Source: Sphingomonadales bacterium (GTDB lineage: Bacteria; Pseudomonadota; Alphaproteobacteria; SMXS01). Taken from it: a DNA stretch of 24,000 nt. A model generated the notes under the pieces. The model was not told the origin of the DNA. It ran no database searches and saw only the letters and a program-made list of their open reading frames with translations. A program made the position numbers and the translations under genes. Below, piece by piece: positions 1 to 14,261 of the stretch (positions are counted from its first letter, which is position 1; each line of letters begins with the position of its first letter). The DNA lies in contig JALHLV010000003.1 in NCBI GenBank assembly GCA_022844405.1, forward strand, positions 74,846 through 98,845, in the 5' to 3' direction.

Positions 1-1182
1 GGTGCCGGCGATCACGTCTTCCTGGGTGAACACCGCATGCTCGGGCCGCTCCGCCGCCTCGCCCGGCGCCGCCTTGGGGTCGCCCACCAGGCTCAGCCCG
101 CGCGCCTTGTCGGCCGGCACGTCGATCCGCAGCGTCCACTTGTCGAACAGGCACTTGTCCGGATCGGTCGGATGCGGCCGCGGCCGCATCACCCACAGCT
201 CCTCCGGCTTGATGGTCATGATGACGTTGGGGAACAGGTCGTATTGCAGCACGTCCGACACCTGGTCGTCAGTGAAGCCCGAATAGTCGAAGCCCAGCGC
301 CTCGCCCACCTCGCGCTTGCGCCGCTGCACTGCCTTGCGGATGTCGGGCACCCGCCCCTTGAAGTCGGCCGGATCGAGGCCCAGCGGCCGGATCGCGGCC
401 TGCAGGATCGGCGGCACCTCGTCCGGCGTGCCGTAGCGCGGATTGGTCACATAGCCTTCGACCAGCACCCGCCGGTGTCCGAACGGCCACAGTTCGTTGC
501 CCGCGTTGCAGCAGTCGACGAAGCTGGCGTGCTGCGGGTGGATGAAGTCTACGTGGTACTGCTCGTTGAAATTGTCGATGCACGTCTTCCAGTTGGCGTC
601 GAGGGCCACGGTCTGGTCGCTCACCAGCACCATGTCATCGAACCGGTAGGGCGCCAGTTGTTCCTCGACCACGCCGAGGAATTCGGACAGCGGCCCGGCC
701 TCCAGATCCATGTTGATCCACACCAGCCCGCCCCAGGTTTCCACGAGTACCGGCTTCAGCGACAGCTCCTCGCACGGCAGCCCTTGCGCGAACCGTTCGG
801 AGTCCGGCACCGACTTCAGCGCGCCGTCCAGCTCGTAGGTCCAGCCGTGATACGGGCAGGCGATGGCCGGCACCGAGCCGCGCTCGTTGGTCATGATCCG
901 GTTGCCGCGGTGCTGGCAGGCGTTGTAGACCGCCGACAGCGCGCCCGCGTCGGTCCGCGTCACGATGATCGACTCCCGGCCGATGTCGAACACGAAATAG
1001 TCGCCGGCCTCTCCCACGTCGCACTCGAGGCCGGCCAGCAGCCAGCTCCGCGTCCACATGCCGTCCCACTCGCGCGCCATGAAGGCCCGCGACGTATAGC
1101 GGTCAGCGTCCAGCGTCGCCCTGGCGCGCGGCGTCGCCGGCGGCCCGTCGGCGAAATCGATATAGGTATTGGTCTGCGGCAT
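1..1182 (-). CDS. Rieske [2Fe-2S] ring-hydroxylating oxygenase, alpha (large) subunit; C-terminus lies beyond the window edge
   Basis: Not in the ORF track because no stop falls inside the window. My minus-strand translation from ATG 1182..1180 gives MPQTNTYIDFADGPP...AVYNACQHRGNRIMTNERGSVPAIACPYHGWTYELDG (CxH-17-CxxH Rieske motif). It continues NWKTCIDNFNEQYHVDFIHPQH (non-heme Fe ligand motif) and stays open to base 1. SD-like GGGGAGAAAG lies 5 nt upstream of the ATG. Confidence 0.85.
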   Translation of the reverse strand, partial: MPQTNTYIDFADGPPATPRARATLDADRYTSRAFMAREWDGMWTRSWLLAGLECDVGEAGDYFVFDIGRESIIVTRTDAGALSAVYNACQHRGNRIMTNERGSVPAIACPYHGWTYELDGALKSVPDSERFAQGLPCEELSLKPVLVETWGGLVWINMDLEAGPLSEFLGVVEEQLAPYRFDDMVLVSDQTVALDANWKTCIDNFNEQYHVDFIHPQHASFVDCCNAGNELWPFGHRRVLVEGYVTNPRYGTPDEVPPILQAAIRPLGLDPADFKGRVPDIRKAVQRRKREVGEALGFDYSGFTDDQVSDVLQYDLFPNVIMTIKPEELWVMRPRPHPTDPDKCLFDKWTLRIDVPADKARGLSLVGDPKAAPGEAAERPEHAVFTQEDVIAGT

Positions 1183-1296
1183 CGACGCTTTCTCCCCGAC
1201 CCGTCCGCGCGCTCTCCCAAAGTCTAGCACGGAGGCGGCCCTTGTTGTGACATCCGTTTTGCGTGCACAGTGCTGCCGTCGAAGGGGAGACACCGC

Positions 1297-2271
1297 ATGG
1301 CCAGCAAGAAACCGTTCCGCTTTTCCTGGCAGGCGTTCAACGCCACCTCCGCGTCGCAGTGGCGCGAGAAGGCCCGCCGCGCCGAGGCGCTGGGCTATTC
1401 GACCTTCCATGTCGCCGACCATTATATCGGCCCCGGCCCGGCGCTCGCCGCCACCAACCATCCGGTCCAGGACATCGCCGCCGTGCCGGCGCTGGCCATG
1501 GCCGCCGAGGCGACCAGCACCATCAATGTCGGCGCCCGCGTGTTCTGCACCGGCTACCGCCCCGCGCCGATCCTGATCAAGGAGGCCATGACCCTGGACT
1601 TCCTGTCCGACGGCCGCTTTGAGCTGGGCCTGGGCGCCGGCTGGATCAGGAACGAGTACGAGGCCATGGGCATCCCCTTCCCCAGCGCCGGCACCCGCAT
1701 CAAGCGGCTCGAGGAAACCATCCGCCTCGCCAAGGCCTCCATGCGCGGCGAGATGCTGAACCTCGACAGCGAACACGTCCACGCCGTCGGCTACGAAGCC
1801 GTCCCCGTCCCGCCGCGCGGCCGCGTGCCGCTGATCGTCGGCGGCGGTGCACCCAGGGTGCTGGGCGTCGCCGGGCGCGAGGCCGACATCGTCAGCATCA
1901 ACTTCAACAACCACACCGGCCGCATCGGCCCGGAATCCCTCGCCAACTCCACCGCCGCCGAGACCCGCAAGAAGATCGGCTGGATCCGCGATGGCGCCGG
2001 CGACCGCTTCGACGACATCGAACTGGAGATCGGCATGATCTTCGTCGCGCTCGACGACAGCCAGCGCGCCGCCGCCGAAATCTGGGCGAAAATGTTCGAC
2101 ATCACCCTCGACGACCTGAAGGACTGCCCCCACGCGCTGATCGGCTCGGTCGACAGCGTCTGCGACGACCTGCAGCGCCTGCGCGAGGAATTCGGCATCA
2201 GCTACATCAACGTCCAGGACCAGTACGGCGAAGCGTTCGCACCCGTCGTGGCGCGGCTGACGGGCAAGTAG
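1297..2271 (+). CDS. Luciferase-like (LLM class) flavin/F420-dependent oxidoreductase
   Basis: ORF 1270..2271. MASKKPFRFSWQAFNATS...ALGYSTFHVADHY...GRFELGLGAGW...PLIVGGGAPRVLGVAGREADIVSIN is typical of the LLM TIM-barrel family. I prefer ATG 1297 because AGGGGAGA lies 6 nt upstream. Divergent from the Rieske gene. Confidence 0.75.
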   Translation: MASKKPFRFSWQAFNATSASQWREKARRAEALGYSTFHVADHYIGPGPALAATNHPVQDIAAVPALAMAAEATSTINVGARVFCTGYRPAPILIKEAMTLDFLSDGRFELGLGAGWIRNEYEAMGIPFPSAGTRIKRLEETIRLAKASMRGEMLNLDSEHVHAVGYEAVPVPPRGRVPLIVGGGAPRVLGVAGREADIVSINFNNHTGRIGPESLANSTAAETRKKIGWIRDGAGDRFDDIELEIGMIFVALDDSQRAAAEIWAKMFDITLDDLKDCPHALIGSVDSVCDDLQRLREEFGISYINVQDQYGEAFAPVVARLTGK

Positions 2272-2318
2272 CGGCGCCTCGCCACGCCCCGGTCTTCAAG
2301 CTCTCGAAGTGGCGCCGA

Positions 2319-4868
2319 TCAGAACTCCGCGGTCAACTCGATGCCCCACGCCCGACCCGGTCCCACCGTGCCAGCCGCGAACAGCGGCGCGATGATCGCC
2401 GGGAACTCGTTGCGCTCGTTCGTCAGGTTGGTGCCGAACACCGCCACCTTGAAACCGTCCCAGCTGTAGCTGATCGAGGCGTTCAGATCTTCACGAGACG
2501 GCACCAGTCCGGTCGCCAGGTTGAGCAGGTCGCCCTGCACCTTGCTGATGACGCTGTACTTCACGCCGAGCTGCAGGTCGCCGGGGCCGATGGCGATGGT
2601 GTAGGTACCGCCGATGCCCCAGGTCCATTTCGGCGCGTTCCGGGGGGTCAGGAAGTTGGCGTCGACGATGCACTCGATGCTGCCCGAGCAACTGTCGTTC
2701 GGGTTCACGTCAGTCCGGAAATCCTTGTACGTGGCGTCCAGATAGCCGACCGAGGCGAACAGGCTCAGATTGTCGGTCACCACCGCCTGGAGTTCCGCCT
2801 CGGCGCCCTGATAGATAACCGAGGCCACGTTGCTGAACACCGTCACCACCGTGTTGGTGGTCGGGTCGAACTGAACCGATTGTTCCTGCTTGTTGTGGAA
2901 GTTGTTGCGGAACAGGGCCACGTTGGTCTGCAGCCGGTTGTCGAACCACTGGGCTTTCACGCCAACCTCGAAGGACTGCGAGGTCTCGGGATCGTATTGG
3001 TCGCGCACGAAGTCGGAGACGTTCTGGTTGACGCCGAAGAAGCCGCCCGAATGCCAGCCCTTGGCGTAGGAGCCGTAAACCAGGATGTCGTCCGTGGCCT
3101 TCCAGGACAGGCCGGCCTTCGGCGAAACGTCGGTCCAGCTGTTCCTGAGGTCGGCGAACTCGGGGAAGTTGTCGATGCCGACACGATCCAGCGGCGTGAT
3201 GTAGGCCTGGGCGCCGATGAAGTGCTTCTTCTCCCGGGTCCAGCGGACACCGGCCGACAGGGTCAGGTTGGGGATGAACTCCCAGTCCACATGCGCGAAG
3301 GCCGCCTGCGACGAGGTCGTCTGGCTCTCGAAGAGTTTGTTCGGGCTGTTGGGCCCGTAGGCCACGTCGCCCGCACCGGAGTCACATCTTACCTGACCGA
3401 ACACAGCCTTCAGCCCAGGCGTGGTTCGCGGCGCGAGACAGGCGGCGGCCGGCGTGGCGAAACCGGTCAGCGTCGCCAGCGACGGGTCGATCCAGGTATT
3501 GGTCGCCAGCGAATAGCCGCTGAGCGACGACACGAACTGCCAGAACGAGCCGCCAGTCACCCACTTCTGGTCGAACTTGCTGTGGAAGAGATACCCGCCA
3601 ACGACCGCGTCGATCTTGCCGAGCGAGGTATCCCAGTTGCCCTCGAGGCGGAATTCCTCGCTCCACTGCTTGTAGGTGTTGTCACGCTCGATGGTGATGA
3701 AGTCAGCCGTCGAGCCGTCGAAGTCGTATTTGCGGTACTCGCGCATGTCGCGGATGCCGGTCACCGACACCAGCTTCACCTCGTCGCTCAGCGTAGCCGA
3801 CATGCTCAGCGTATAAGCCGTTGTGTTGACGCGCCCGGGATTGGGCAGATCGGTGGCGATCTCCTTTCGCGGAAACGCCAAGGTGGTGCGGCAAGGCACG
3901 TTTTGGATGCCGAAGACGCCCGGCAGGAAGCAGCCGAGGAACCCGCCGCTAAAATCCGGTTCGCGGGGATCGGTGGGTTTGGAACGCACACCGGCGGCGA
4001 AGTTCCAGTTGGTCAGGTAGGCGCCGCCCTGGCCATGGTCCTCGAACCGCTCCACCGTGAACTGGGCTTCGAACCAGTCGTTGGGCGTCGCCAGCAGGGT
4101 CAGGCCGTAGTTCTTGTAGTCCTTTTGTGGCTGTGTGGTGTTCAGAAAGGTGTTCCTGAACCAGCCATTGCGGGCCTGGACGGTGAAGAACGCCTTCGCC
4201 GCCAGCTTGTCCTGCACCACCGGCGCGTTGATCACGGCGCGGAATTCCTGCTGATTCCACCGACCGAACGTGTACTGCGCCTTGGCGCCGAATTCCCCGG
4301 TTGGCCGGCTGCGGATCACGTTGAGCACGCCGCCTACCGTATTGCGGCCGTAAAGCGTTCCCTGCGGGCCGCGCAGGATTTCAATACGCTCGAGGTCGAA
4401 ATTGTCGATCACCTGCCCAGACAGCGAGCCCAGATAGATGCCGTCAATCATGACCGCGATCGGCGAGTCCAGCGAGTTGTCGTCCGTTCGGGTCGGGCTG
4501 ATGCCTCGGATGGTAATCGACGAGCCGCCCGCGCGCTCTGGATTTGCGTCGATGCGCACATTGGCCGAATAGCCGTTCAGGTCGCGGATATCGCGGACGG
4601 TCGCCAGCTTCAACTCGCTGGTCAGCGCGGTCATGGCGACCGGCACTTCCTGCGCCGTTTCCTCGGTCTTGCGAGCGGTGACCAGCACCTGCTCCACTCT
4701 GGGCGAGGATTTAGGCGGCGGATTGTCTGCGACCTTCTGGGGTGGCGCGGCGGCCGCGTCCGGCGCCGGCTGCGCCGCGGCGATGGTCGGAACGGTCACG
4801 ACGAGCAGGGTGGCTAGTGACGTTGCGGCACAGGATGCAATGCGTCCAACCGCGACAAATCGCTTCAT
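2319..4868 (-). CDS. TonB-dependent outer-membrane receptor (paralog 1)
   Basis: ORF 2319..4988. Start trimmed to ATG 4868, which has GGGGAGGG upstream and gives signal peptide MKRFVAVGRIASCAATSLATLLVVTVPTIAAAQPA. Plug-domain motifs VLVTARKTEETAQEVPVAMTAL and RIEILRGPQGTLYGRNTVGGVLNV are present. Long beta-barrel ends in the aromatic terminal residue ...WGIELTAEF. Confidence 0.9.
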   Translation of the reverse strand: MKRFVAVGRIASCAATSLATLLVVTVPTIAAAQPAPDAAAAPPQKVADNPPPKSSPRVEQVLVTARKTEETAQEVPVAMTALTSELKLATVRDIRDLNGYSANVRIDANPERAGGSSITIRGISPTRTDDNSLDSPIAVMIDGIYLGSLSGQVIDNFDLERIEILRGPQGTLYGRNTVGGVLNVIRSRPTGEFGAKAQYTFGRWNQQEFRAVINAPVVQDKLAAKAFFTVQARNGWFRNTFLNTTQPQKDYKNYGLTLLATPNDWFEAQFTVERFEDHGQGGAYLTNWNFAAGVRSKPTDPREPDFSGGFLGCFLPGVFGIQNVPCRTTLAFPRKEIATDLPNPGRVNTTAYTLSMSATLSDEVKLVSVTGIRDMREYRKYDFDGSTADFITIERDNTYKQWSEEFRLEGNWDTSLGKIDAVVGGYLFHSKFDQKWVTGGSFWQFVSSLSGYSLATNTWIDPSLATLTGFATPAAACLAPRTTPGLKAVFGQVRCDSGAGDVAYGPNSPNKLFESQTTSSQAAFAHVDWEFIPNLTLSAGVRWTREKKHFIGAQAYITPLDRVGIDNFPEFADLRNSWTDVSPKAGLSWKATDDILVYGSYAKGWHSGGFFGVNQNVSDFVRDQYDPETSQSFEVGVKAQWFDNRLQTNVALFRNNFHNKQEQSVQFDPTTNTVVTVFSNVASVIYQGAEAELQAVVTDNLSLFASVGYLDATYKDFRTDVNPNDSCSGSIECIVDANFLTPRNAPKWTWGIGGTYTIAIGPGDLQLGVKYSVISKVQGDLLNLATGLVPSREDLNASISYSWDGFKVAVFGTNLTNERNEFPAIIAPLFAAGTVGPGRAWGIELTAEF

Positions 4869-5017
4869 GGCAGGTCCCTCCCCAAAAAAACGACCGCCCT
4901 TGACGGCCGCTATTGCATCGGTTCCCACATTCCATGGTGGAAATCTCGTGCCGTCGCGGACCCGGCGATCGATGAGAAAAGCGTGCACCCGCCAATGGCG
5001 TTAATCAACGACTATTT
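4869..5017 (-). promoter_or_regulatory. Structured 5' leader plus promoter-proximal conserved box of TBDR paralog 1
   Basis: Minus-strand elements: box AAATAGTCGTTGATTAAC (5017..5000); conserved core GGCACGAGATTTCCACCATGGAATGTGGGAACCGATGC (4952..4915) containing hairpin UUUCCAC-CAUGGAAU-GUGGGAA; then CGGCCG-UCAAGGG-CGGUCG followed by U7 (4909..4884) directly before the SD. The same layout lies upstream of paralog 2. Confidence 0.35.
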
Positions 5018-5071
5018 GTTCCGGCCGTATTGTTAACATCTCCTCAGTCGTTTGAAACAGAACGCCTCTGC

Positions 5072-5105
5072 AACGAAAAGAGGTGCGCCGTCGCCGGCGC
5101 ACCTC
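5072..5105 (-). terminator. Rho-independent terminator downstream of TBDR paralog 2
   Basis: The minus strand reads GAGGTGCGCCG-GCGA-CGGCGCACCTC-TTTTCGTT. That is a perfect 11-bp GC-rich stem, a 4-nt loop and a U-tract, 30 nt after the stop at 5136. Confidence 0.7.
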
Positions 5106-5135
5106 CCGTTCTTCAAGCTCTCGAAGTGGCGCGGA

Positions 5136-7676
5136 TCAGAACTCCGCGGCCAGCTCGACGCCCCAGCTCCAGCCCGGCCCGATAGTGCTGGACGCGAACA
5201 GCGGCGCGATGATTGTGGGAACCTCGTTCCGCTCGTTGGTGAGGTTGCGGCCGAACATCGTCACCCGGTACTTGTCCCAGATGTAGCTGACCGACGCGCT
5301 CAGGTCGTCGCGGGGCCGAACAGCGCCCAGCGTCTGGTTGAGCAGATTGCCCTGGACCTTGCCGACATAGGCGTACTTGACGTTGAGCTGCAGGTCGCCC
5401 GGTCCGACCGTCACCGTGTAGACGCCGCCGATGCCCGCCGTCAGCTTCGGTGCGTTCCGGACCTCAAGATAGGAAGCGTCGACGACGCACTCTGGCTTGC
5501 CGGTGCAGGTGTCGTTCGGGTTGACGTCGGTGAAGAAGTCCTTGTACTGGGCGTCCAGCAGGCCGATCGATCCGAAGAGGTTGAGCTGATCGGTCACGGC
5601 GGCCTGGACCTCGGCCTCGATACCCTTGTAGATCACGTTCGCCACGTTGGAGAACACCGTCGCGACCGTATTCGTCGACTCGTCGAACTGCACCGCCTGT
5701 TCCTGCTTGTTCTTGAAGGTGTTGTGGAACAGCGCGATGTTGGTCTGCAGCCGGTTGTCGAACCACTGGGCCTTCACGCCGATTTCGAACGACCGCGAGG
5801 TCTCGGGATCGTACTGGTCGCGCTCGAAGTCGGCGACGTTCTGGTTCACGCCGAAGAAGCCGCCCGAGTGCCAGCCTTTCGAGAAATTGCCATAGAGCAG
5901 GATATCGTCGGTCGGCTTCCACGACAGGCCCACCTTGGGCGAGATGTCGTTCCAGCTATTCTCGAGGTCGGCGAACTCAGGGTAGTTGAACTCGTAGGCT
6001 CGCGAAACCGGCGCCAGATAGGCCTGGGCCGCGACGAAGTGCTTCTTCTCATGGCTATAGCGGACGCCGGCTTCCAGCGTCAGTCCGGGCAGGAACTCCC
6101 AGTCCGCGTGCGCGAACAGCGCTTGCGCGGTCGTCTTCTGGTCCTCGAACAGCTTCTGCACCAGCTTGGGGCCATAGGCTGTGTCGCCCGCCGCGGTGTC
6201 GCAGCGTACGTTGCCGAACCGCAGAGCAAGACAGGCGCCGACCGGCGTGAAGCCCGGGTGCGCCGCCTGGGCCAGGGGGCTGAGCCAGGTGTTGGACGCC
6301 AGCGAATAGCCGCTGAGCGCGCCGATGAACGTCCAGAAGTCGCCGCCGGTCACCCAGTTCTGGTTGAAGTCGCTGTACCAGTAGTACCCACCGATCAAGG
6401 CGTTGATCTTGCCCATCGATGTATCCCAGTTGCCTTCCAGCCGGACTTCGCCGCTGAACTGCTCGAACTGGTTGTCGCGCTCGATGGTGATGTGGTCCAC
6501 CTCGGTGCCGTCGAAGTCGTACTTGCGGTACTCCTTCATGTCGCGGTAGCCGAGCAGCGTGACCAGCTTCAACTCGTCGCTGAACTCGTAGGACGCGTCC
6601 AGGGTGAACGCCGTCGTGCGCACCCGGCCCGGATTGGGCAGGTCGGTCGAGATGTTCTTCGGGTCGTACGGAATCGTCGTCCGGCACGGCACGCTGGGCA
6701 CCGCGCTGATCAGGCCCGGCAAGAAGCAGGACAGGAAACCGCCGGCGTAATTGGGATCCTCGGGCCGGTCGGTCGGTGGCAGCACGCCCGGCGCGAAGTT
6801 CCAGCTGGTCAGGCCGGCGCCGCCCTGGCTGTCGTCCTCGAACCGCTCGATGGTCAGCTTGGCCTCGAACCGGTCGTTCGGCGTCGCCAGCAGGGTGATG
6901 CCATAGTTCATGTAGTCGCGCTGCGGCTGCCGCTCGTCACGGAACTCGTTGTAGAACCAGCCTTTGCTGTTCAGCGAGGTGAAAAACGCCTTGGCCGCCA
7001 GCTTGTCCTCGACGATCGGGATGTTGAACACGCCGCGGAACTCGTGCGTGTCCCACCGGCCGTAGGTGTATTGCAGCTTGGCGCCCCACTCGCCGGTCGG
7101 CCGGCTGCGGATCGCGTTCAGCACACCGCCGACCGTGTTGCGGCCGTACAGCGTGCCCTGCGGGCCGCGCAGGATTTCGATGCGCTCGATGTCGAAATTC
7201 TCCAGCACCTGACCCGACAGCGAGCCCAGATAGATGCCGTCGATCATGACGGCGATCGGCGAATCGAACGAGTTGTCGTCCGTGCGGGTCGGGCTGATGC
7301 CGCGGATGGTGATCGAGGCGGCGCTGGCGCGCGACGGATCGTTGTCGATGCGCACGTTCGCCGAATATCCATTCAGATCCTTCAGGTCGCGCACCGTGGC
7401 CAGCTTCAGTTCCGCGTTGATCGCGGTCATCGCGACCGGCACGTCCTGGGCCGATTCCTCGGTCTTTCGTGCCGTCACCAGCACGGAGTCGACGCGCGGG
7501 GCCGTCCGCGTCGCCTGGGCGAGTTGCTCGCCGCTGACCGCGGTTACCGGCGCCGGTGTTTCGCGCATGGTCTCCGCCGCGGACGCCCCGAAAGGCAGCA
7601 ACAGAACAGGTAGTGCGAACGCGGCCGTTCTGGCGGCGCGCGAGAACTCGCGAGGCGAGCGTGGCCTGTAAGTCAT
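5136..7676 (-). CDS. TonB-dependent outer-membrane receptor (paralog 2)
   Basis: ORF 5136..7766. Start trimmed to ATG 7676 (GGGGAGGAAAAC upstream), giving MTYRPRSPREFSRAARTAAFALPVLLLPFGASAAE. Collinear and highly similar to paralog 1 throughout: VLVTARKTEESAQDVPVAMTAI, RIEILRGPQGTLYGRNTVGGVLNA, ...WGVELAAEF. Confidence 0.9.
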   Translation of the reverse strand: MTYRPRSPREFSRAARTAAFALPVLLLPFGASAAETMRETPAPVTAVSGEQLAQATRTAPRVDSVLVTARKTEESAQDVPVAMTAINAELKLATVRDLKDLNGYSANVRIDNDPSRASAASITIRGISPTRTDDNSFDSPIAVMIDGIYLGSLSGQVLENFDIERIEILRGPQGTLYGRNTVGGVLNAIRSRPTGEWGAKLQYTYGRWDTHEFRGVFNIPIVEDKLAAKAFFTSLNSKGWFYNEFRDERQPQRDYMNYGITLLATPNDRFEAKLTIERFEDDSQGGAGLTSWNFAPGVLPPTDRPEDPNYAGGFLSCFLPGLISAVPSVPCRTTIPYDPKNISTDLPNPGRVRTTAFTLDASYEFSDELKLVTLLGYRDMKEYRKYDFDGTEVDHITIERDNQFEQFSGEVRLEGNWDTSMGKINALIGGYYWYSDFNQNWVTGGDFWTFIGALSGYSLASNTWLSPLAQAAHPGFTPVGACLALRFGNVRCDTAAGDTAYGPKLVQKLFEDQKTTAQALFAHADWEFLPGLTLEAGVRYSHEKKHFVAAQAYLAPVSRAYEFNYPEFADLENSWNDISPKVGLSWKPTDDILLYGNFSKGWHSGGFFGVNQNVADFERDQYDPETSRSFEIGVKAQWFDNRLQTNIALFHNTFKNKQEQAVQFDESTNTVATVFSNVANVIYKGIEAEVQAAVTDQLNLFGSIGLLDAQYKDFFTDVNPNDTCTGKPECVVDASYLEVRNAPKLTAGIGGVYTVTVGPGDLQLNVKYAYVGKVQGNLLNQTLGAVRPRDDLSASVSYIWDKYRVTMFGRNLTNERNEVPTIIAPLFASSTIGPGWSWGVELAAEF

Positions 7677-7990: not shown

Positions 7991-9007
7991 TTAGCCGACC
8001 GTCACCTCCCATGCCTTCTCTGTCGCCGGGGCGATGGCGATGTCCACATCCAGGAAACGCCTGATGATGTCGGCGTTGGTCCGGGTGTGCAGGCTCGGAC
8101 GCAGGGTGGTGAAGTGCCCGCCGCCCGCCAGCGCCATCGGGATCAGCAACTGGTCCGCCAGGTGCGGGCCGGCCGCCGCATCCACCGCCAGGTAGCGCAG
8201 CGCATTGGCCGCCGTCCGTTCGGCCACGTGCTCGGCGCGCACGCCAACCTTGCCGTAGCCGGCGAACACTTCGGTCACCTGCTCGAACGCCAGGGTCACC
8301 AGCAGCACGTTGCCAGGACCCGGGCTCCGTTCGGCGCCCTGGAGGTGCAACGCATCCGTGCTCAGCCCCAGCCGTATGCCGACTTCCTTCAGTTCGCGGT
8401 CGGCGATGTCGCGGGGCAGGTTGGCGATCAGGGCGTGCGCCATCCGCGACGTCTCCGCGCCGCGCGACGGCAGGTCGAGGCGGGCAAGCGACTTCACCGG
8501 CGACAACGTCACCGTGAACCGCCCTCCGCCGACCGGATAGAAGCCGTGCCGCTCCAGCGACGCCTCGGCCGTCACCCCCATGCGCCGCAGCAGCGGCAGG
8601 AACGCACGGTCGATAAACTCGAAGGGCGGCCCGCCGAAATTGTGGGTGCCGCCCTCGAATGCCAGCGTCGATGGCCGGTCGGCCTGCAGCAGCGCGGGCA
8701 GCACGGTCTGAAACACCAGCGTCGTGCTTCCGGCCGAGCCGACCGAGAACGTGTAGTCGCCGCCGCGCACCTTGCCGGGCACGAACGTCAGCGCGCGCGA
8801 GCCGATGCCCGCGCCGGTGACCTCGGCGTCCGAAATCGCCGCCGCCGCGTTGACCGCGGTCAGGTGCTGGCGCATCAGGCCACCCCGCTCCCGCTTGGCG
8901 CGAATGTTGACGATCCGAAAGGCCTGGCCGGTAACGATGGACAACGCCAGGGCAGTCCGCAGGATCTGCCCGCCGCCTTCGCCCTCCGACCCGTCGATGG
9001 TAATCAC
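7991..9007 (-). CDS. rtcA: RNA 3'-terminal phosphate cyclase RtcA
   Basis: ORF 7991..9031. ITIDGSEGEGGGQILRTALALSIVTGQAFRIVNIRAKRERGGLMRQHLTAV..., FSVGSAGSTTLVFQTVLPAL and ADQLLIPMALAGGG align by eye with E. coli RtcA. GTG 9007 (AGGAAC 6 nt upstream) gives 338 aa starting MITIDGSEGEGGGQ, the same length and N-terminus as E. coli. The track start at 9031 is a TTG. Confidence 0.9.
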   Translation of the reverse strand: MITIDGSEGEGGGQILRTALALSIVTGQAFRIVNIRAKRERGGLMRQHLTAVNAAAAISDAEVTGAGIGSRALTFVPGKVRGGDYTFSVGSAGSTTLVFQTVLPALLQADRPSTLAFEGGTHNFGGPPFEFIDRAFLPLLRRMGVTAEASLERHGFYPVGGGRFTVTLSPVKSLARLDLPSRGAETSRMAHALIANLPRDIADRELKEVGIRLGLSTDALHLQGAERSPGPGNVLLVTLAFEQVTEVFAGYGKVGVRAEHVAERTAANALRYLAVDAAAGPHLADQLLIPMALAGGGHFTTLRPSLHTRTNADIIRRFLDVDIAIAPATEKAWEVTVG

Positions 9008-9036
9008 TATATTGTTCCTACTCCCAAACAATGGAC

Positions 9037-9089: not shown

Positions 9090-10316
9090 TTATCCCTTCA
9101 CGCATACCACCTGGCGAAGCGTGTGGACGATCTCGACCAGATCCTTCTGCGCCTCCATCACCGCATCGATCGGCTTGTAGGCGGCAGGAGTCTCGTCGAT
9201 GACGCCCGCGTCCTTGCGGCACTCCACACCCTGTGTCGCCTCGATATGCTCTTCGAGGCTCACCAGCTTCTTCGCCTTCGTCCGCGACATCACCCGCCCC
9301 GCGCCATGCGAGCAGCTATGGAAACTCTCGTCGTTCCCCAGCCCGCGCACGATGTAGGACCGTGCCCCCATGCTTCCCGGGATGATCCCCAGGTCGCCCT
9401 TGCGGGCGCGCACCGCACCCTTGCGGGTCACGAACACCTCTTCACCGAAATGATGCTCGCGCGTCACGTAGTTGTGGTGGCAGTTCACCGCCTCCACTTC
9501 CGCGTCGAACGGCTTGGCGATCACCGACCGCATGGCGTCGACGATGTTGGCCATCATCAGCTGCCGGTTGGCCATGGCGAACGCCTGCGCCCATTCCACG
9601 GCGAAGACGTAGTCGTCGAAGTGCCGGGCGCCTTCGGGGAAGTACGCCAGGTCCTCGTCCGGCAGGTTCGCCTCGATCCGGCGCATGTCCTGCTTGGCCA
9701 GTTCGATGAAAGCGCGGCCGATGGCGTTGCCCACGCCGCGCGAGCCTGAATGCAGCATGAACCAGACCCGGTCCTCCTCGTCGAGGCAGACCTCGACGAA
9801 ATGGTTGCCGGTTCCCAGCGTTCCCAGATGGGTCACGGTGTTCGCGCCCTTCAGGTTGCGCTGGCCGTCGACGATCCGCTGGAAACCGGGCTCAAGCACG
9901 GCCCAGGCCTTCAGCGTCCGCTCCGGCGGCTCGCCCCACGACCCGGTGTCGCGCTTGCCGCGTCCCACCGAACGCCCATGCGGCACCGCCCGTTCAATCG
10001 CGAAACGCATCTCACGCAGGCTGTCGGGCAGGTCCGACGCCGTCAGCGTCGTCCGCGCCGCCATCATGCCGCAGCCGATGTCGACGCCGACCGCCGCGGG
10101 GATGATCGCCCCCTTGGTCGGAATCACGCTGCCCACCGTGGAGCCGATGCCCTGATGCACGTCCGGCATCACCGCCAGCCACTTGTGGATGAACGGCATC
10201 CGCGCGGTCTTCACCAGCTGCTCGCGCGCGCCGTCCTCAACGGGCACGCCGTGCGTCCACATCTTGATGGGCACGCCACCGGTTTCGGTCATGGTCTCAT
10301 ATGTATGCTCAGCCAT
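9090..10316 (-). CDS. rtcB: RNA-splicing ligase RtcB (3'-phosphate/5'-hydroxyl RNA ligase)
   Basis: ORF 9090..10595. The true start is ATG 10316 (GACGGAGGAAAGAAA upstream), giving 408 aa: MAEHTYETMTETGGVPIKMWTHGVPVEDGAREQL..., MPDVHQGIGSTVGSVIPT, GTLGTGNHFVEVC, SCSHGAGR. The 93 upstream codons of the track ORF overlap the non-coding Y-RNA modules. Confidence 0.92.
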   Translation of the reverse strand: MAEHTYETMTETGGVPIKMWTHGVPVEDGAREQLVKTARMPFIHKWLAVMPDVHQGIGSTVGSVIPTKGAIIPAAVGVDIGCGMMAARTTLTASDLPDSLREMRFAIERAVPHGRSVGRGKRDTGSWGEPPERTLKAWAVLEPGFQRIVDGQRNLKGANTVTHLGTLGTGNHFVEVCLDEEDRVWFMLHSGSRGVGNAIGRAFIELAKQDMRRIEANLPDEDLAYFPEGARHFDDYVFAVEWAQAFAMANRQLMMANIVDAMRSVIAKPFDAEVEAVNCHHNYVTREHHFGEEVFVTRKGAVRARKGDLGIIPGSMGARSYIVRGLGNDESFHSCSHGAGRVMSRTKAKKLVSLEEHIEATQGVECRKDAGVIDETPAAYKPIDAVMEAQKDLVEIVHTLRQVVCVKG

Positions 10317-10354
10317 TTTCTTTCCTCCGTCTCGTTCATTCCGCCCGACAGGAC

Positions 10355-10482
10355 GCGGCGACAAGGGACCGGTGAAACCTCGCTTTCTGCTCTGCCGCTG
10401 AACTACGGTCTCCCTGGGGAAAACCGGCGGGACTCGAACCCGCGCCACGAAAGTCCAATGTAGTTCCACCTGCATTCGCCGC
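10355..10482 (-). ncRNA. yrlA: Y-RNA-like module 4 with permuted tRNA-like domain (YrlA-like)
   Basis: The minus strand reads GCGGCGA-AUGCA-GGUGGAAC-UACAUUGG...GCGGG-UUCGAGU-CCCGC (T-arm), then a closed 9-bp acceptor-like hairpin CGGUUUUCC-CCA-GGGAGACCG. Next come UA, GUUC-AGCGGCA-GAGC (D-arm), then ...GUUUCACC-GGUCCCUUG-UCGCCGC. The terminal stems pair 7 bp and 8 bp. Confidence 0.7.
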
Positions 10483-10490
10483 TGACCGTA

Positions 10491-10602
10491 GGCGCGACAA
10501 GCTGGTGCGAGACATTTCCGCCCCTCGTGAGAGCGGCGGACGAAGGCTTCGAACCTTCTCTCACCGAAGTGATTACCATGTAGTCCCGCGGGCATTCGCG
10601 CC
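10491..10602 (-). ncRNA. Y-RNA-like module 3 (T-arm-like hairpin only, no D-arm)
   Basis: GGCGCGA-AUGCCC-GCGGGAC-UACAUGG...UCAC-UUCG-GUGA...GAAGG-UUCGAAG-CCUUC...GUCUCGC-ACCAGCUUG-UCGCGCC. It has the same two-stem, asymmetric-loop architecture as the other modules, built from different stem sequences that still pair. Confidence 0.55.
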
Positions 10603-10675
10603 GCCGATGTCGTGAGCCGTCAAACGATCGTCCTTTCCTCTGTTCGTTCTTCCATTCGATCCGCCAGACAAGGGC

Positions 10676-10800
10676 GCGGCGACAAGGTTTCGGTGAAACA
10701 CTCCTGCTCTACCGTTGAGCTACGGACCCGAAGGCCCGGCGGGACTCGAACCCGCAACCCGGCGATGTACAATCCATGTAGTTCCACCTGCATTCGCCGC
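10676..10800 (-). ncRNA. yrlA: Y-RNA-like module 2 with permuted tRNA-like domain (YrlA-like)
   Basis: GCGGCGA-AUGCA-GGUGGAAC-UACAUGG...GCGGG-UUCGAGU-CCCGC (T-arm), then CGGGCC-UUCG-GGUCCG (closed acceptor-like hairpin). Next come UA, GCUC-AACGGUA-GAGC (D-arm), then ...GUUUCACC-GAAACCUUG-UCGCCGC. Confidence 0.7.
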
Positions 10801-10806
10801 TGAGCG

Positions 10807-10897
10807 CCGAGCAGCAAGATTGTGCATGACCTAAGTTTAGGACCATTATAAGTGGCCCGGGGACTACCCCTATGTAGTCATGCACGCATCCGCCCGG
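10807..10897 (-). ncRNA. Y-RNA-like module 1 (no tRNA-like domain)
   Basis: Begins 7 nt after the rsr stop. CCGGGCGG-AUGC-GUGCAUGAC-UACAUAGGGGUAGUCCCC...GUCAUGCAC-AAUCUUG-CUGCUCGG. Lower stem 8 bp (two G-U pairs), upper stem 9 bp perfect. It has the same AUGC / ..CUUG internal loop and UACAU motif as modules 2-4. Confidence 0.5.
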
Positions 10898-10904
10898 CGC
10901 AGTG

Positions 10905-12461
10905 CTAGTCTGTCAGATCGATCTCCTCGATGCGGTCCACCAGATAGGTGGGACCGGTTTCACCCGTCGCGAAGGCGGCCATCGCCTCGAACACCGCGTC
11001 GGAAAACCCGCCGATATTCAGGATGTCAGCCGACCCCTGCGCCTGTGTCGTGCCGTAAGGCTGGATATCGACGCAGATCAACCGGGCTTCCGGATTGGCG
11101 TTCTTCAGCATGCGCCACTGGCGCATGGTCTCGGTGTTCTGCGGCCTAGCCGCATCCACCCAGGACTGGTTGTCCGACACGAAGATCACCGTATCCACCG
11201 TCGCGTTCTCGTCGTTCAGGCGCCGCAGCGGCGCGGAACAGTTGGTTCCGCCACCACCGATCCCCGCCAGCGCGGCGGCGTTCGCCGTCACGCTCGCCTC
11301 CGGATCGAGGCGCACCTTCACCACGTCGTTCTCGAACGGCAGCACCCTAGCGGAAGGGTTCTTGCGCACCACCGCCGCGGCCACCAGTGCCGCCACATCG
11401 ATGCACCGCACCGCCGTGGCCGCGCCGCGCCGGTGACCGGTCACGGGCGACGCCATGGAGCCGGACACATCGGGGCAAACCGCCACCCGGCCCGCGAAGG
11501 CCGGCACGTTCCGCACCGCCGTCTCCATCGCCGCATCGAGCGCCTCCAGCACCGCTGCTGGCACGGAACCTGTCGCCATCCGTGCCGCCATCAGCTGGTA
11601 CGGGAACACCCGCGCCCGCTTGATCTCGTGCGGATCCCGTAGGCGCTCCGCCAACAGCGCGGTCATGCCCTCTACCTCGAACACGCCGTGGCGCGCGAAG
11701 GTGTTCAGGTTCATGCGCAGCGTCTGCCAGCGTGCGTTGCGGGCGATCGCCGCCCAGGCCTCGCGGCCCAGCGGCAGCGCGGTTAGCATCTGGAACGGGA
11801 CGTCCGGCACCTCGGCCGTTTCGCCCGTCTTGAACGCCTCGAACCGGCGGATCGCCTCCGGCAGCAGCGCTGCGTCGTGCGGCTTGCCGATCAGGTATCC
11901 GAACAGCGCCTCCCGTCCCGGATCGACTGGAGTCGGATGCACCATCCGGATCACGTCGGCTAGCGACGGATCTTGGCCCACGGCGGCCGCGATCAGGCGG
12001 TCGTCGGAAGCCTGGATCAGCCAGTCGGCGACCAGCCGCTTCGGCCGCGAACCCAGCGACTTCCGGCCCATCGCGCCTGAGCGCATGATCTGCACGAAGG
12101 TGCGCAGCATGCGTCCGTTGTCGATGACCCGGTCGAACACGGGGGCCGCGAATTCGGGTCCGTTCACCGTCAGGTAGGCCAGCAGCAGCGCGGGGGCATC
12201 CTTCATGAAGCCGTGCCGGCGGGCATAGACCGCCGTCCTGGCGACGAATGCCGGATCGACCGCCTGGGCCGCGTCCAGCACCCCCGCCAGCTGCTCCCGC
12301 GCTTCCGCATAGAAGGTTCCGTTCAGGCACCCGGTCACCGCCAGCTGCGCCAGTCTATGGCGCGGCGTATAGACGAAGGCCGGAGCGCCTTCCCGGTTCC
12401 GGCCATCCGGCCGCGGGAGCAGCTTTCCTCTGATTGACGCAAACACGGATTTGTTTGCCAT
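10905..12461 (-). CDS. rsr: Ro60-related protein Rsr (TROVE domain plus C-terminal vWA domain)
   Basis: ORF 10905..12470. MANKSVFASIRGKLLP...LAQLAVTGCLNGTFYAEAREQ...ARRHGFMKDAPALLLAYL is TROVE-type. CPDVSGSMASPVTG carries the DxSGS MIDAS motif of the vWA domain. I prefer ATG 12461, which has AGAGGA 8 nt upstream. ATG 12470 has no spacer to its SD. Confidence 0.9.
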   Translation of the reverse strand: MANKSVFASIRGKLLPRPDGRNREGAPAFVYTPRHRLAQLAVTGCLNGTFYAEAREQLAGVLDAAQAVDPAFVARTAVYARRHGFMKDAPALLLAYLTVNGPEFAAPVFDRVIDNGRMLRTFVQIMRSGAMGRKSLGSRPKRLVADWLIQASDDRLIAAAVGQDPSLADVIRMVHPTPVDPGREALFGYLIGKPHDAALLPEAIRRFEAFKTGETAEVPDVPFQMLTALPLGREAWAAIARNARWQTLRMNLNTFARHGVFEVEGMTALLAERLRDPHEIKRARVFPYQLMAARMATGSVPAAVLEALDAAMETAVRNVPAFAGRVAVCPDVSGSMASPVTGHRRGAATAVRCIDVAALVAAAVVRKNPSARVLPFENDVVKVRLDPEASVTANAAALAGIGGGGTNCSAPLRRLNDENATVDTVIFVSDNQSWVDAARPQNTETMRQWRMLKNANPEARLICVDIQPYGTTQAQGSADILNIGGFSDAVFEAMAAFATGETGPTYLVDRIEEIDLTD

Positions 12462-12493
12462 TGCTCTCATCCTCTATTTCACACCTTCCCAGT

Positions 12494-12509
12494 AGCAACG
12501 GGCGTGCCA
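12494..12509 (-). promoter_or_regulatory. Sigma-54 (-24/-12) promoter of the rsr-Y RNA-rtcBA operon
   Basis: The minus strand reads CTGGCACGCCCGTTGCTA, i.e. TGGCAC-N5-TTGCT. This matches the TGGCAC-N5-TTGCW consensus with correct spacing, about 33 nt upstream of the rsr ATG and facing it. A sigma-54 activator (rtcR) is encoded divergently. Confidence 0.75.
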
Positions 12510-12665
12510 GATCAGCGCAAGAGTCGGCATATTTTCTATAAACCATTGGTATTACATTAATAAAAACTTTAATCAGATTCTCGAGTCAGTATTCCGTGGA
12601 TGGTGAACTCCACATCTTTATAGAATATAATATACACAAATATCTGTTTGGATCACATTGCGGAC

Positions 12666-14261
12666 ATGAAGCGACAGGTCGTCATCAGCTTTCTCGGCAG
12701 CGTCCTCGATTCCGGCACCCACGCCCGCCGGTGGGAGAAGTGGCGTCCCAATATTGGCATGTGCCAGCAGGACGACCTGGTCATCGATCGCCTTGAACTG
12801 ATTTACGACAAGCGCATCACCACGCTCTTGACCACCGTCCGGCGTGACATCGCCATGGTGTCGCCCGAAACCGAGGTGCGCCCCCAGCTCATGGACCTAA
12901 GGGATCCCTGGGATTTCGAAGAGGTTTACGCGGCGCTGCACGACTTCGCCCGCGCCTATCCGTTCGACCCGGAAACCGAGGATTACCTGATCCAGATCAC
13001 CACCGGCACCCACGTGGCGCAGATCTGCATGTATCTGCTAACCGAGGCCCACTACTTCCCCGGCCGGCTGCTGCAGCTGTCGCCGCCGCGCGGCCGGAGC
13101 GGCTTGATCGCCGGCACCTACTCGATCATCGATCTCGACCTGTCCCGCTACGACCGCATCGCCACCCGCTTCGAAGCCGAGCGCGACGAGGCCGCTTCAT
13201 TCCTGAAGTCCGGCATCGCCACGCGCAATGCGGCCTTCAACCACATGATCGACCAGATCGAGCATGTCGCCATCCGCTCCTCGGCGCCGGTCCTGCTGAT
13301 GGGGCCGACGGGCGCGGGTAAATCCCATCTCGCGCGCCGCATCCACGAGCTCAAACAGGCACGGCGCCAGCTCGCCGGCCCGTTCGTCGAGATCAACTGT
13401 GCCACTCTGCGTGGCGACGGCGCTATGTCGACCCTGTTCGGCCACACCAAAGGCGCATTCACCGGCGCCGTCGGCGCGCGGCCAGGCCTGCTGCGCGCCG
13501 CTGACAGCGGCATGCTGTTCCTCGACGAGATCGGCGAACTGGGCCTCGATGAGCAGGCCATGATCCTGCGCGCCATCGAGGACCGCACCTTTCTGCCCGT
13601 CGGGTCCGACAAGCCGGTTCAGAGCGACTTCCAGCTCATCGCCGGCACCAATCGCAATCTCGGGCAGGCGGTTCGCGAAGGCCGCTTTCGCGAGGATCTC
13701 TACGCGCGGCTCAACCTGTGGACCTTCCACCTGCCCGGACTACGCGACCGGCGCGAGGACATCGAGCCCAACATCGCCTTCGAGCTGGCACGCCATCGCG
13801 GCGAAACCGGCCGCAACGTTACCATGAACCGAGAGGCTGAACGCCGCTTCCTCGCCTTCGCCCTTGATCCTGCGTCGCTGTGGTCGGCCAATTTCCGCGA
13901 CTTGGCCGCGTCGATCACCCGTATGGCGACCCTCGCGCCGTCCGGGCGGATCACCGAGGACGTGGTTGCCGAGGAGATCGCACGCCTGCGGCTGCTGTGG
14001 CGCGGCGCCGAAACTTCCGGCGGGGAAGCCGTGCTCGCCGATGTCCTGCCCCCCGAGCGGCTTGACGCCGTCGATCCGTTCGACCGGCCCCAGCTCGCCC
14101 GCGTGATCGAGACCTGCCGGCGCCATCGTTCCCTGAGCGCTGCGGGGCGTGAGCTGTTCGCTGCTTCCCGCCGGGAGAAGTCGACGCATAACGACGCCGA
14201 CCGCCTGCGCAAATATCTTGCCCGCTTCGGATTGGCGTGGGGCGACGTCACCGCGCCCTAA
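12666..14261 (+). CDS. rtcR: Sigma-54-dependent transcriptional activator RtcR (N-terminal CARF-type sensor, AAA+ core, C-terminal HTH)
   Basis: ORF 12648..14261. ATG 12666 gives MKRQVVISFLGSVLDSGTHARRWEKWRPNIGMCQQDDLVIDRLELIYD..., collinear by eye with E. coli RtcR. Shared features include ITTGTHVAQIC, Walker A GPTGAGKS, GAFTGA, DEIGEL and the C-terminal DADRLRKYLARFGL. Predicted length is 531 aa. Confidence 0.92.
   Translation: MKRQVVISFLGSVLDSGTHARRWEKWRPNIGMCQQDDLVIDRLELIYDKRITTLLTTVRRDIAMVSPETEVRPQLMDLRDPWDFEEVYAALHDFARAYPFDPETEDYLIQITTGTHVAQICMYLLTEAHYFPGRLLQLSPPRGRSGLIAGTYSIIDLDLSRYDRIATRFEAERDEAASFLKSGIATRNAAFNHMIDQIEHVAIRSSAPVLLMGPTGAGKSHLARRIHELKQARRQLAGPFVEINCATLRGDGAMSTLFGHTKGAFTGAVGARPGLLRAADSGMLFLDEIGELGLDEQAMILRAIEDRTFLPVGSDKPVQSDFQLIAGTNRNLGQAVREGRFREDLYARLNLWTFHLPGLRDRREDIEPNIAFELARHRGETGRNVTMNREAERRFLAFALDPASLWSANFRDLAASITRMATLAPSGRITEDVVAEEIARLRLLWRGAETSGGEAVLADVLPPERLDAVDPFDRPQLARVIETCRRHRSLSAAGRELFAASRREKSTHNDADRLRKYLARFGLAWGDVTAP

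Follow-up and report, generated by a model that had tools for sequence, protein, structure and literature searches.

What occupies the non-coding gap between rsr, the bacterial ortholog of the Ro60 gene, and the RNA ligase gene rtcB in a Sphingomonadales bacterium (GenBank assembly GCA_022844405.1, contig JALHLV010000003.1, positions 74,846 to 98,845 of the forward strand)? This stretch of 24,000 nucleotides (nt) is referred to as the window, and all positions without a locus name are positions within it. The gap is bounded on the minus strand by the rsr stop codon (10907-10905) and the rtcB ATG (10316-10314). A preliminary description of the sequence had proposed that it holds an array of four Y RNA-like modules, two of them with circularly permuted tRNA-like domains. 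Judged from the sequence, the gap very probably encodes four tandem bacterial Y RNAs which share one Rsr-docking helix and carry different interiors.

Four modules with a common plan

The minus strand from 10897 to 10355 resolves into exactly four modules built on one plan: a lower stem of 7-8 base pairs (bp), AUGC, an upper stem of 7-9 bp, UACAU, a variable interior, the 3' strand of the upper stem, a loop ending in CUUG, and the 3' strand of the lower stem. A repeat finder recovered a 27-nt 5' motif four times. The core was also expressed as a strict descriptor (7-bp lower stem, ATGC, N0-2, 7-bp upper stem, 3' upper strand, 2-8 nt, TTG, 3' lower strand), which matched just these four sites in the gap, each on the rsr strand, and none elsewhere on either strand of the window. 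Shuffles of ~780 kilobases (kb) of comparable DNA gave 1-4 matches each, and the module array is therefore real and far beyond chance. All four modules are encoded on the strand of rsr, at 8-550 nt 3' of its stop codon, inside the distance of 4 kb or less on the same strand that was used to associate a Y RNA with rsr.

Module 1 (10807-10897, minus strand; 91 nt) is a YrlB-like Y RNA according to the descriptor, its fold and the covariance model R1 introduced below. It has two small interior hairpins and no tRNA-like part, and from 10897 to 10807 its plan reads CCGGGCGG AUGC GUGCAUGAC UACAU ... GUCAUGCAC AAUCUUG CUGCUCGG. CGGAUGC replaces CGAAUGC in this module; this turns the closing pair from A-U into G-C, with a compensating change on the 3' strand. 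Module 2 (10676-10800, minus strand), identified as YrlA with Rfam RF02553, contains a T-arm, a 6-bp acceptor-like hairpin with a UUCG loop, and a D-arm; its plan from 10800 to 10676 is GCGGCGA AUGCA GGUGGAAC UACAU ... GUUUCACC GAAACCUUG UCGCCGC. Module 3 (10491-10602, minus strand), placed by descriptor and fold, carries a small UUCG hairpin, the T-arm GAAGG-UUCGAAG-CCUUC and a third hairpin, with no D-arm (10602-10491: GGCGCGA AUGCCC GCGGGAC UACAU ... GUCUCGC ACCAGCUUG UCGCGCC). Module 4 (10355-10482, minus strand), also matched by RF02553, is a second YrlA, paralogous to module 2; its acceptor-like hairpin has 9 bp and a CCA loop, and its D-arm is GUUC/GAGC. From 10482 to 10355 its stems are as in module 2.

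The positions and the plan agree with the preliminary description, and the stems quoted there pair as claimed. It had also pointed to covariation visible within the locus. The stems do differ between modules and do pair; however, the Rsr-binding stems and T-arm of module 2 are the same as those of module 4, and the two modules diverge only in the acceptor-like hairpin, the variable region and a portion of the D-arm, so the within-locus covariation rests on three independent stem sets, not four. The minimum free energy (MFE) structure from RNAfold equals the proposed fold for modules 1 (z -4.59), 3 (z -3.70) and 4 (z -1.7).

Family assignment of the modules

An Rfam scan of the whole window gave one match above the gathering score: YrlA (RF02553) on module 2, with 77.3 bits (gathering score 69; E 1.5e-16). 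In covariance-model alignments the YrlA architecture, a T-arm, a variable acceptor-like hairpin and a D-arm inside a terminal helix, is present in modules 2 and 4. Modules 1 and 3 lack it, as they have no D-arm. The interiors had been described in just this way, with acceptor-like hairpins of 6 bp/UUCG and 9 bp/CCA in modules 2 and 4, a T-arm-like hairpin alone in module 3 and no tRNA-like part in module 1. The permuted order, T before D, is the published architecture of the YrlA tRNA-like domain (PMC4201824; bioRxiv 10.1101/312249), and the comparison with the YrlA tRNA mimic is borne out by the RF02553 matches to modules 2 and 4 and, weakly, to module 3.

For modules without a tRNA-like domain a separate covariance model, R1, was built from 34 short modules of other species, none from the window. 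R1 aligns with the whole of module 1 (32 bits, E 1.2e-6), its best match in the window. Module 1 thus falls into the short or YrlB-like class, which R1 defines and which combines the shared core helix with the absence of a tRNA-like domain. On the cores of modules 2-4, R1 produced weak, misaligned partial matches (E 0.4-0.8) and was not used to detect them.

Conservation of the array across rsr loci

Homologs of the window Rsr at E<=1e-30 number at least 8000, and several carry the name '60 kDa SS-A/Ro ribonucleoprotein'. Among the matches listed, a protein identical to the window Rsr (P0001; 518 amino acids, aa) was found on one metagenome contig only (L001, JGI 3300002461). The closest named Rsr belongs to Inquilinus (67-68% identity), and the nearest set of Rsr proteins consists of Inquilinus and other Alphaproteobacteria. 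The comparison set comprised 80 rsr loci of other species and two metagenome loci; counts with the relaxed descriptor cover 83 loci.

In the 80 loci of other species the strict descriptor found 175 sites, against 1-4 in shuffles. When CUCG was allowed beside CUUG and the outermost pair was freed, this relaxed descriptor detected 281 sites on the strand of rsr and 7 on the other strand, against 6-12 in shuffles. Almost every module follows rsr immediately on its 3' side, with or without rtcB behind it, and the modules are therefore linked to rsr, not to rtcB.

By the relaxed count, 6 loci have no module, 10 have one, 13 two, 17 three, 14 four, 9 five, 8 six, 3 seven and 3 eight, where a few of the top counts take in one stray match outside the array. 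The median is 3, and four or more modules are found in 37 of the 83 loci. Mesorhizobium loci (L011, L022, L023 and L031) and Inquilinus-type loci (L002-L005 and L083) have ~6-7, and the closest relative, L082, has a short module and two YrlAs. The four-member array had been called an unusually rich case. That judgement did not survive the comparison: four modules are typical of this neighbourhood, not exceptional, because four or more are so often present and some loci reach ~6-7.

The interiors also recur as classes. These are a short hairpin (55-70 nt); a small hairpin, T-arm and hairpin without a D-arm (~95-115 nt); and a full YrlA (~120-135 nt). The T/D-arm regular expressions behind these classes are crude and some modules labelled 'B' have variant T-arms, so class counts are approximate. 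The architecture of module 3 is that of the T-only three-hairpin class, to which at least 19 modules of other species belong. The first module after rsr is non-tRNA-like in 45 of the 70 loci with at least one strict-descriptor module (~two thirds), an order like that of yrlB-yrlA in Salmonella. The Rfam YrlA threshold catches 1-2 modules per locus in the arrays tested.

In the Inquilinus-like locus L083 (4563-5567; ENA ERZ17861410), seven Y modules can be distinguished by eye in the 1-kb rsr-rtcB gap. Several of them have CUCG for CUUG and UCCAU for UACAU, and the motifs that appeared invariant in the window are therefore clade-specific variants.

Covariation

Forty-nine YrlA-class modules, including modules 2 and 4 of the window, were aligned. 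Standard pairs fill 99.0% of the cells, compared with 84.6% after shuffling, compensatory changes occur at 19 of 30 pairs, and none of 500 shuffles reaches any observed measure. When the partner strand was slid by 1-3 columns, pairing fell to 38-49%. The acceptor-like stem, which lies outside the descriptor, has compensatory changes at all 7 of its 7 pairs and 97.9% pairing. In the T-only class (20 modules including module 3) the T-stem covaries as well: GC, CG, AU and UA are found at the two outer pairs, and the GGUUCGA loop is invariant. The preliminary description had staked its proposal on covariance-model matches and on stem covariation in other loci. The Rfam check it called for gave YrlA matches to modules 2, 4 and 3, and the covariation is strong in other rsr loci.

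The end of the acceptor-like stem varies. In at least 16 of the 49 YrlA-class modules (alignment columns 66-93) a 7-bp acceptor-like stem is followed immediately by N-CCA, like the 3' end of a tRNA, against ~0.8 expected by chance, in sequences that are not independent of each other. In module 4 (10432-10412, minus strand) CCA forms the loop of the 9-bp stem, and module 2 has a closed UUCG tetraloop. The difference between CCA and UUCG may mark RNase P-cleavable versus closed YrlA copies, for which M. smegmatis (Mycobacterium smegmatis) YrlA offers a comparison.

Tandem YrlAs can also imitate tRNAs across their borders. In L082 (3798-3925) and L075 (6232-6350) the Rfam tRNA model scores above its gathering score by joining the D-arm of one YrlA to the T-arm of the YrlA after it. 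These bridging matches mirror the dimeric-tRNA false positives which Chen et al. removed, and they probably lead to spurious tRNA annotations around rsr. A dense array of tRNA genes is found beside rsr in L015 (Acidobacteria MAG45, JAIVJI010000095.1), where 24 of them, all above the Rfam gathering score, lie directly upstream of rsr (6-3862). The rsr gene (4001-5554) and four or five Y modules follow. In certain bacteria Y RNAs adjoin tRNAs (Chen et al., PMC4201824), and the size of the tRNA array beside rsr in L015 is striking.

Weighing of the alternatives

Several points weigh against four functional Y RNAs. The array is known here from its sequence, and it is from this that we infer expression, processing, Rsr binding and partner specificity. 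In a permissive scan module 4 reached 56 bits with RF02553 (E 7e-12), below the gathering score, module 3 reached 25.4 bits (E 0.005), far under it, and module 1 had no Rfam match. The RNAfold MFE structure of module 2 keeps the lower stem only, with the upper stem and interior re-paired relative to the YrlA fold, so the structure of module 2 rests on the YrlA covariance model. The motif GNCGAAN0-1G, reported near the 5' end of bacterial Y RNAs (Chen et al. 2014, PMC4201824), is strictly matched in modules 2 and 4 only (GGCGAAUG). In module 3 the corresponding stretch is CGCGAAUG, with C for the first G; in module 1 it is GGCGGAUG, where G replaces the first A and the 3' strand compensates. 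As the first G of the motif is a covarying stem position (column 3 of the YrlA-class alignment), the motif is a consensus and no strict rule. The covariation of the lower and upper stems is partly circular, because the descriptor required them to pair; for these stems only the shuffle and opposite-strand counts are independent. Finally, the Rsr next in similarity to the identical one is 69% identical among the matches listed, and modules 1 and 3 were compared by class, not ortholog by ortholog.

Some of these points could be read as decay. On that account only the YrlA copies (module 2, perhaps module 4) are functional, and modules 1 and 3 are decaying duplicates whose tRNA-like parts are gone and to which Rsr no longer binds. 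The Rfam scores do drop from 77 to 56, to 25 and to none, the CGGAUGC of module 1 is off the core consensus and occurs in just 3 of the 175 descriptor matches, and duplication followed by decay is visible at the locus in the form of a leader relic (see below). However, both modules retain perfect lower (7-8 bp) and upper (7-9 bp) stems, AUGC, CUACAU and CUUG, and the one departure in module 1 is compensated on its 3' strand. Their architectures recur across phyla, module 1 among the short or non-tRNA modules and module 3 in the T-only class with its covarying T-stem. Salmonella and M. smegmatis YrlB are Rsr-bound without a full tRNA domain (PMC4201824). Decay is therefore an unlikely explanation of modules 1 and 3.

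A considerably weaker case can be made that the array acts in cis as a leader of rtcBA, whether as an mRNA stabiliser, a processing platform or an attenuator, and does not yield trans-acting RNAs. Such a role would suit its place inside the operon, 38 nt from the rtcB start, and the lack of promoter-like or terminator-like sites within it in a consensus scan; module excision would also necessarily make the 5' end of the rtcBA message. Yet similar arrays follow rsr in many loci with no rtcB found within 4 kb, so that arrays track rsr, and two of the modules belong to a family shown by experiment to be stable and Rsr-bound (PMC4201824), which makes a purely cis-acting leader very improbable. That the modules are remnants of tRNA genes or a repeat element unrelated to Rsr is scarcely credible: their T-arm and D-arm sequences are near the tRNA consensus and there are weak tRNA and tRNA-Sec matches at E 5-9, but ARAGORN found 0 tRNA genes in the window, the Rfam tRNA model reached 15 bits near the array (E 4.9), far short of the 29 bits of its gathering score, the T-arm comes before the D-arm with no anticodon arm, and in the window and the compared loci the modules are confined to the neighbourhood and strand of rsr.

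Four Y RNAs on one Rsr-docking helix remain the preferred reading, and a mechanism can be proposed for them, its steps drawn from work in Deinococcus, Salmonella and M. smegmatis. RtcR would switch on the sigma-54 promoter upstream of rsr, and a single rsr-Y1-Y2-Y3-Y4-rtcB-rtcA transcript would be produced. The Y RNAs would be excised from this transcript and stabilised through the binding of Rsr to their shared helix. The predicted docking site consists of the lower stem, an asymmetric loop (5' AUGC, 3' N-CUUG) and the upper stem closed by CUACAU. The modules would differ in the 'effector' interior: a YrlA domain in modules 2 and 4, a T-arm between two hairpins in module 3, and two small hairpins in module 1. 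Each interior may tether Rsr to a different partner, with tRNA-binding proteins as candidates for the tRNA-like domains.

Several published observations provide the background to these steps. In M. smegmatis, YrlA and YrlB, the latter with a possible T-arm, are cut from one precursor; in D. radiodurans (Deinococcus radiodurans) Yrn1 the GNCGAA-type 5' strand is protected by Rsr; and Xenopus Ro60 contacts the 5' strand of Y RNA (all PMC4201824). PNPase is a known partner of Yrn1 and YrlA, with the interiors as tethers (PMC4201824; bioRxiv 10.1101/312249). The role of Y RNAs in the Rtc response of Salmonella is unknown (PMC7790460).

A broader proposal is put forward tentatively, as something possible but rather short of probable: that three or more structurally distinct classes of Y RNA, all built on one Rsr-docking helix, form a conserved panel in the rsr loci of many phyla, cassette-expanded to as many as about seven copies. 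If each class recruits its own partner, Rsr would be a multi-adaptor hub and PNPase one client among several. The window modules would then represent three functional classes and one paralog, not redundant copies.

Spacers and growth of the array

The modules had been described as packed with spacers of 6-8 nt. This is accurate for modules 1-2 (6 nt) and 3-4 (8 nt), but the spacer between modules 2 and 3 is 73 nt long. This longer spacer (10603-10675, minus strand) is unstructured (fold z 0.14) and is a decayed copy of the rtcB leader. The rtcB leader itself (10317-10354, minus strand) precedes the rtcB start and has the Shine-Dalgarno sequence GGAGGA. In a local alignment, the spacer from 10675 to 10603 and the leader region from 10354 to 10285 score 34, compared with 19.2 +/- 3.7 for shuffles, of which 2 in 1000 reach 34. 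A Shine-Dalgarno relic, AGAGGAAAG, is found where the leader has GGAGGAAAG, and ATC stands in place of the leader ATG. The spacer was also considered as a fifth RNA, which was ruled out by the absent structure and the homology to the rtcB leader.

Since the spacer is a decayed rtcB leader and modules 2 and 4 share their stems and T-arm, the array, as read from its sequence, grew by duplication of a 'YrlA plus rtcB leader' cassette.

The surrounding operon

The gene order is rtcR / sigma-54 promoter, rsr, four Y modules, rtcB and rtcA. The sigma-54 activator gene rtcR (12648-14261, plus strand; Pfam RtcR 1.6e-82, Sigma54_activat 1.4e-51) is divergent from the rest. The open reading frame (ORF) of rsr extends over 10905-12470 on the minus strand (Pfam vWA_Ro60 1.2e-20), with a likely true start at 12461 (MANKS...). 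It is followed on the same strand, beyond the array, by rtcB (9090-10316; Pfam RtcB 3.2e-129) and by rtcA, encoding the RNA 3'-phosphate cyclase (7991-9031; Pfam RTC 2.5e-75).

A longer rtcB ORF of 501 aa (9090-10595, minus strand) was rejected as an artefact whose 93 extra upstream codons extend across modules 3 and 4. The real start lies at 10316; in the 408-aa form beginning there, residue 33 is the first of the RtcB Pfam domain. A gene caller which takes the longest ORF at rtcB would hide two RNA genes, modules 3 and 4.

A pattern search located a sigma-54 type promoter element, TGGCAC-N5-TTGC (12495-12509, minus strand), ~25 nt upstream of rsr; it is the sole match to this pattern in the rtcR-rsr intergenic region. 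A loose sigma-54 pattern is no rarer than chance across the window (6 found, 6 expected), and the sigma-54 call therefore rests on the position of the element and its full TGGCAC/TTGC match. In a consensus scan of the minus strand from rtcA through rsr, the array included, no sigma-70 promoter-like or terminator-like site was found. Together with the sigma-54 element upstream of rsr, this absence of internal promoter-like and terminator-like sites supports one transcription unit.

The intergenic region between rtcR and rsr (12510-12647) is markedly rich in adenine and thymine (AT) compared with its surroundings of ~65% GC, with the sigma-54 -24/-12 element at the edge nearer to rsr. RtcR enhancer sites or DNA-bending sites are probably located in the AT-rich part.

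Comparison with known systems

Bacterial Y RNAs beside rsr are already published, as are the tRNA-like YrlA in which T comes before D and the presence of two or more Y RNAs in a species. Chen et al. 2014 counted 355 YrlAs in 276 genomes and gave every copy located within 4 kb (PMC4201824), and multi-copy loci are therefore already on record. The YrlB searches of 2014 recovered Salmonella orthologs only (PMC4201824). In a literature search with key sources beyond reach, no account of arrays of 4-7 modules or of short and T-only classes across phyla was found, and novelty is not claimed. YrlA alone, as far as found, is covered by a curated model and has been surveyed systematically.

The current picture of bacterial Ro-Y RNA particles is left unchanged. 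At the locus itself the gain is one of annotation: four non-coding RNA genes stand where gene callers see an empty gap or an over-long rtcB ORF, and one of the four passes Rfam. The comparison also points to an undercount of the Y RNAs of rsr loci by the Rfam YrlA model, as the core-helix descriptor finds short and T-arm-only classes in most loci. For work on Ro60 and Rsr, the descriptor yields candidate adaptor RNAs.

Metazoan Y RNAs (RF00019) share a common plan with the modules, in that their 5' and 3' ends pair into a Ro-binding helix with an internal loop and enclose a variable effector loop. This likeness is architectural only. A resemblance of the CUUG and the adjoining 3' stem strand to human Y RNAs had been suggested; hY1 has ...CACUUGACUAG... 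on its 3' strand. The resemblance was not confirmed: RF00019 gave no match at E<=10 in 10200-11000, nor did any Rfam family besides YrlA give one there with a bearing on it.

The operon has the same layout as in Salmonella, rsr-yrlBA-rtcBA (PMC7790460; PMC4201824). The closest counterpart of modules 2 and 4 is YrlA of Salmonella Typhimurium and M. smegmatis (RF02553; PMC4201824), with which they share the Rsr helix with GNCGAAUG, the T-arm, the variable acceptor-like hairpin and the D-arm, T before D. Their position is also alike, immediately 3' of rsr and on its strand, within an rsr-Y-rtcBA operon controlled by RtcR. The window differs in having two YrlA paralogs, of which module 4 scores below the Rfam gathering score, and in the loops of their acceptor-like hairpins (UUCG in module 2, CCA in module 4).

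Modules 1 and 3 are best compared with YrlB of Salmonella and M. smegmatis and with Yrn2 of D. radiodurans, which are Rsr-bound, lack a full tRNA-like domain, are co-transcribed beside YrlA and carry the GNCGAA-type motif (PMC4201824), from which modules 1 and 3 each depart at one position. For example, the possible T-arm of M. smegmatis YrlB resembles module 3 (PMC4201824). There are two interior hairpins in module 1 and three in module 3, and the likeness to YrlB and Yrn2 is one of architecture.

The whole array is most similar to the multi-module arrays of Mesorhizobium (L011, L022, L023, L031), Inquilinus (L002-L005), L083 and Blastocatellia (L075). These have the same core helix and the same three interior classes, and they are tightly packed 3' of rsr; they differ from the window in having 5-7 modules, and the Mesorhizobium arrays begin with YrlA.

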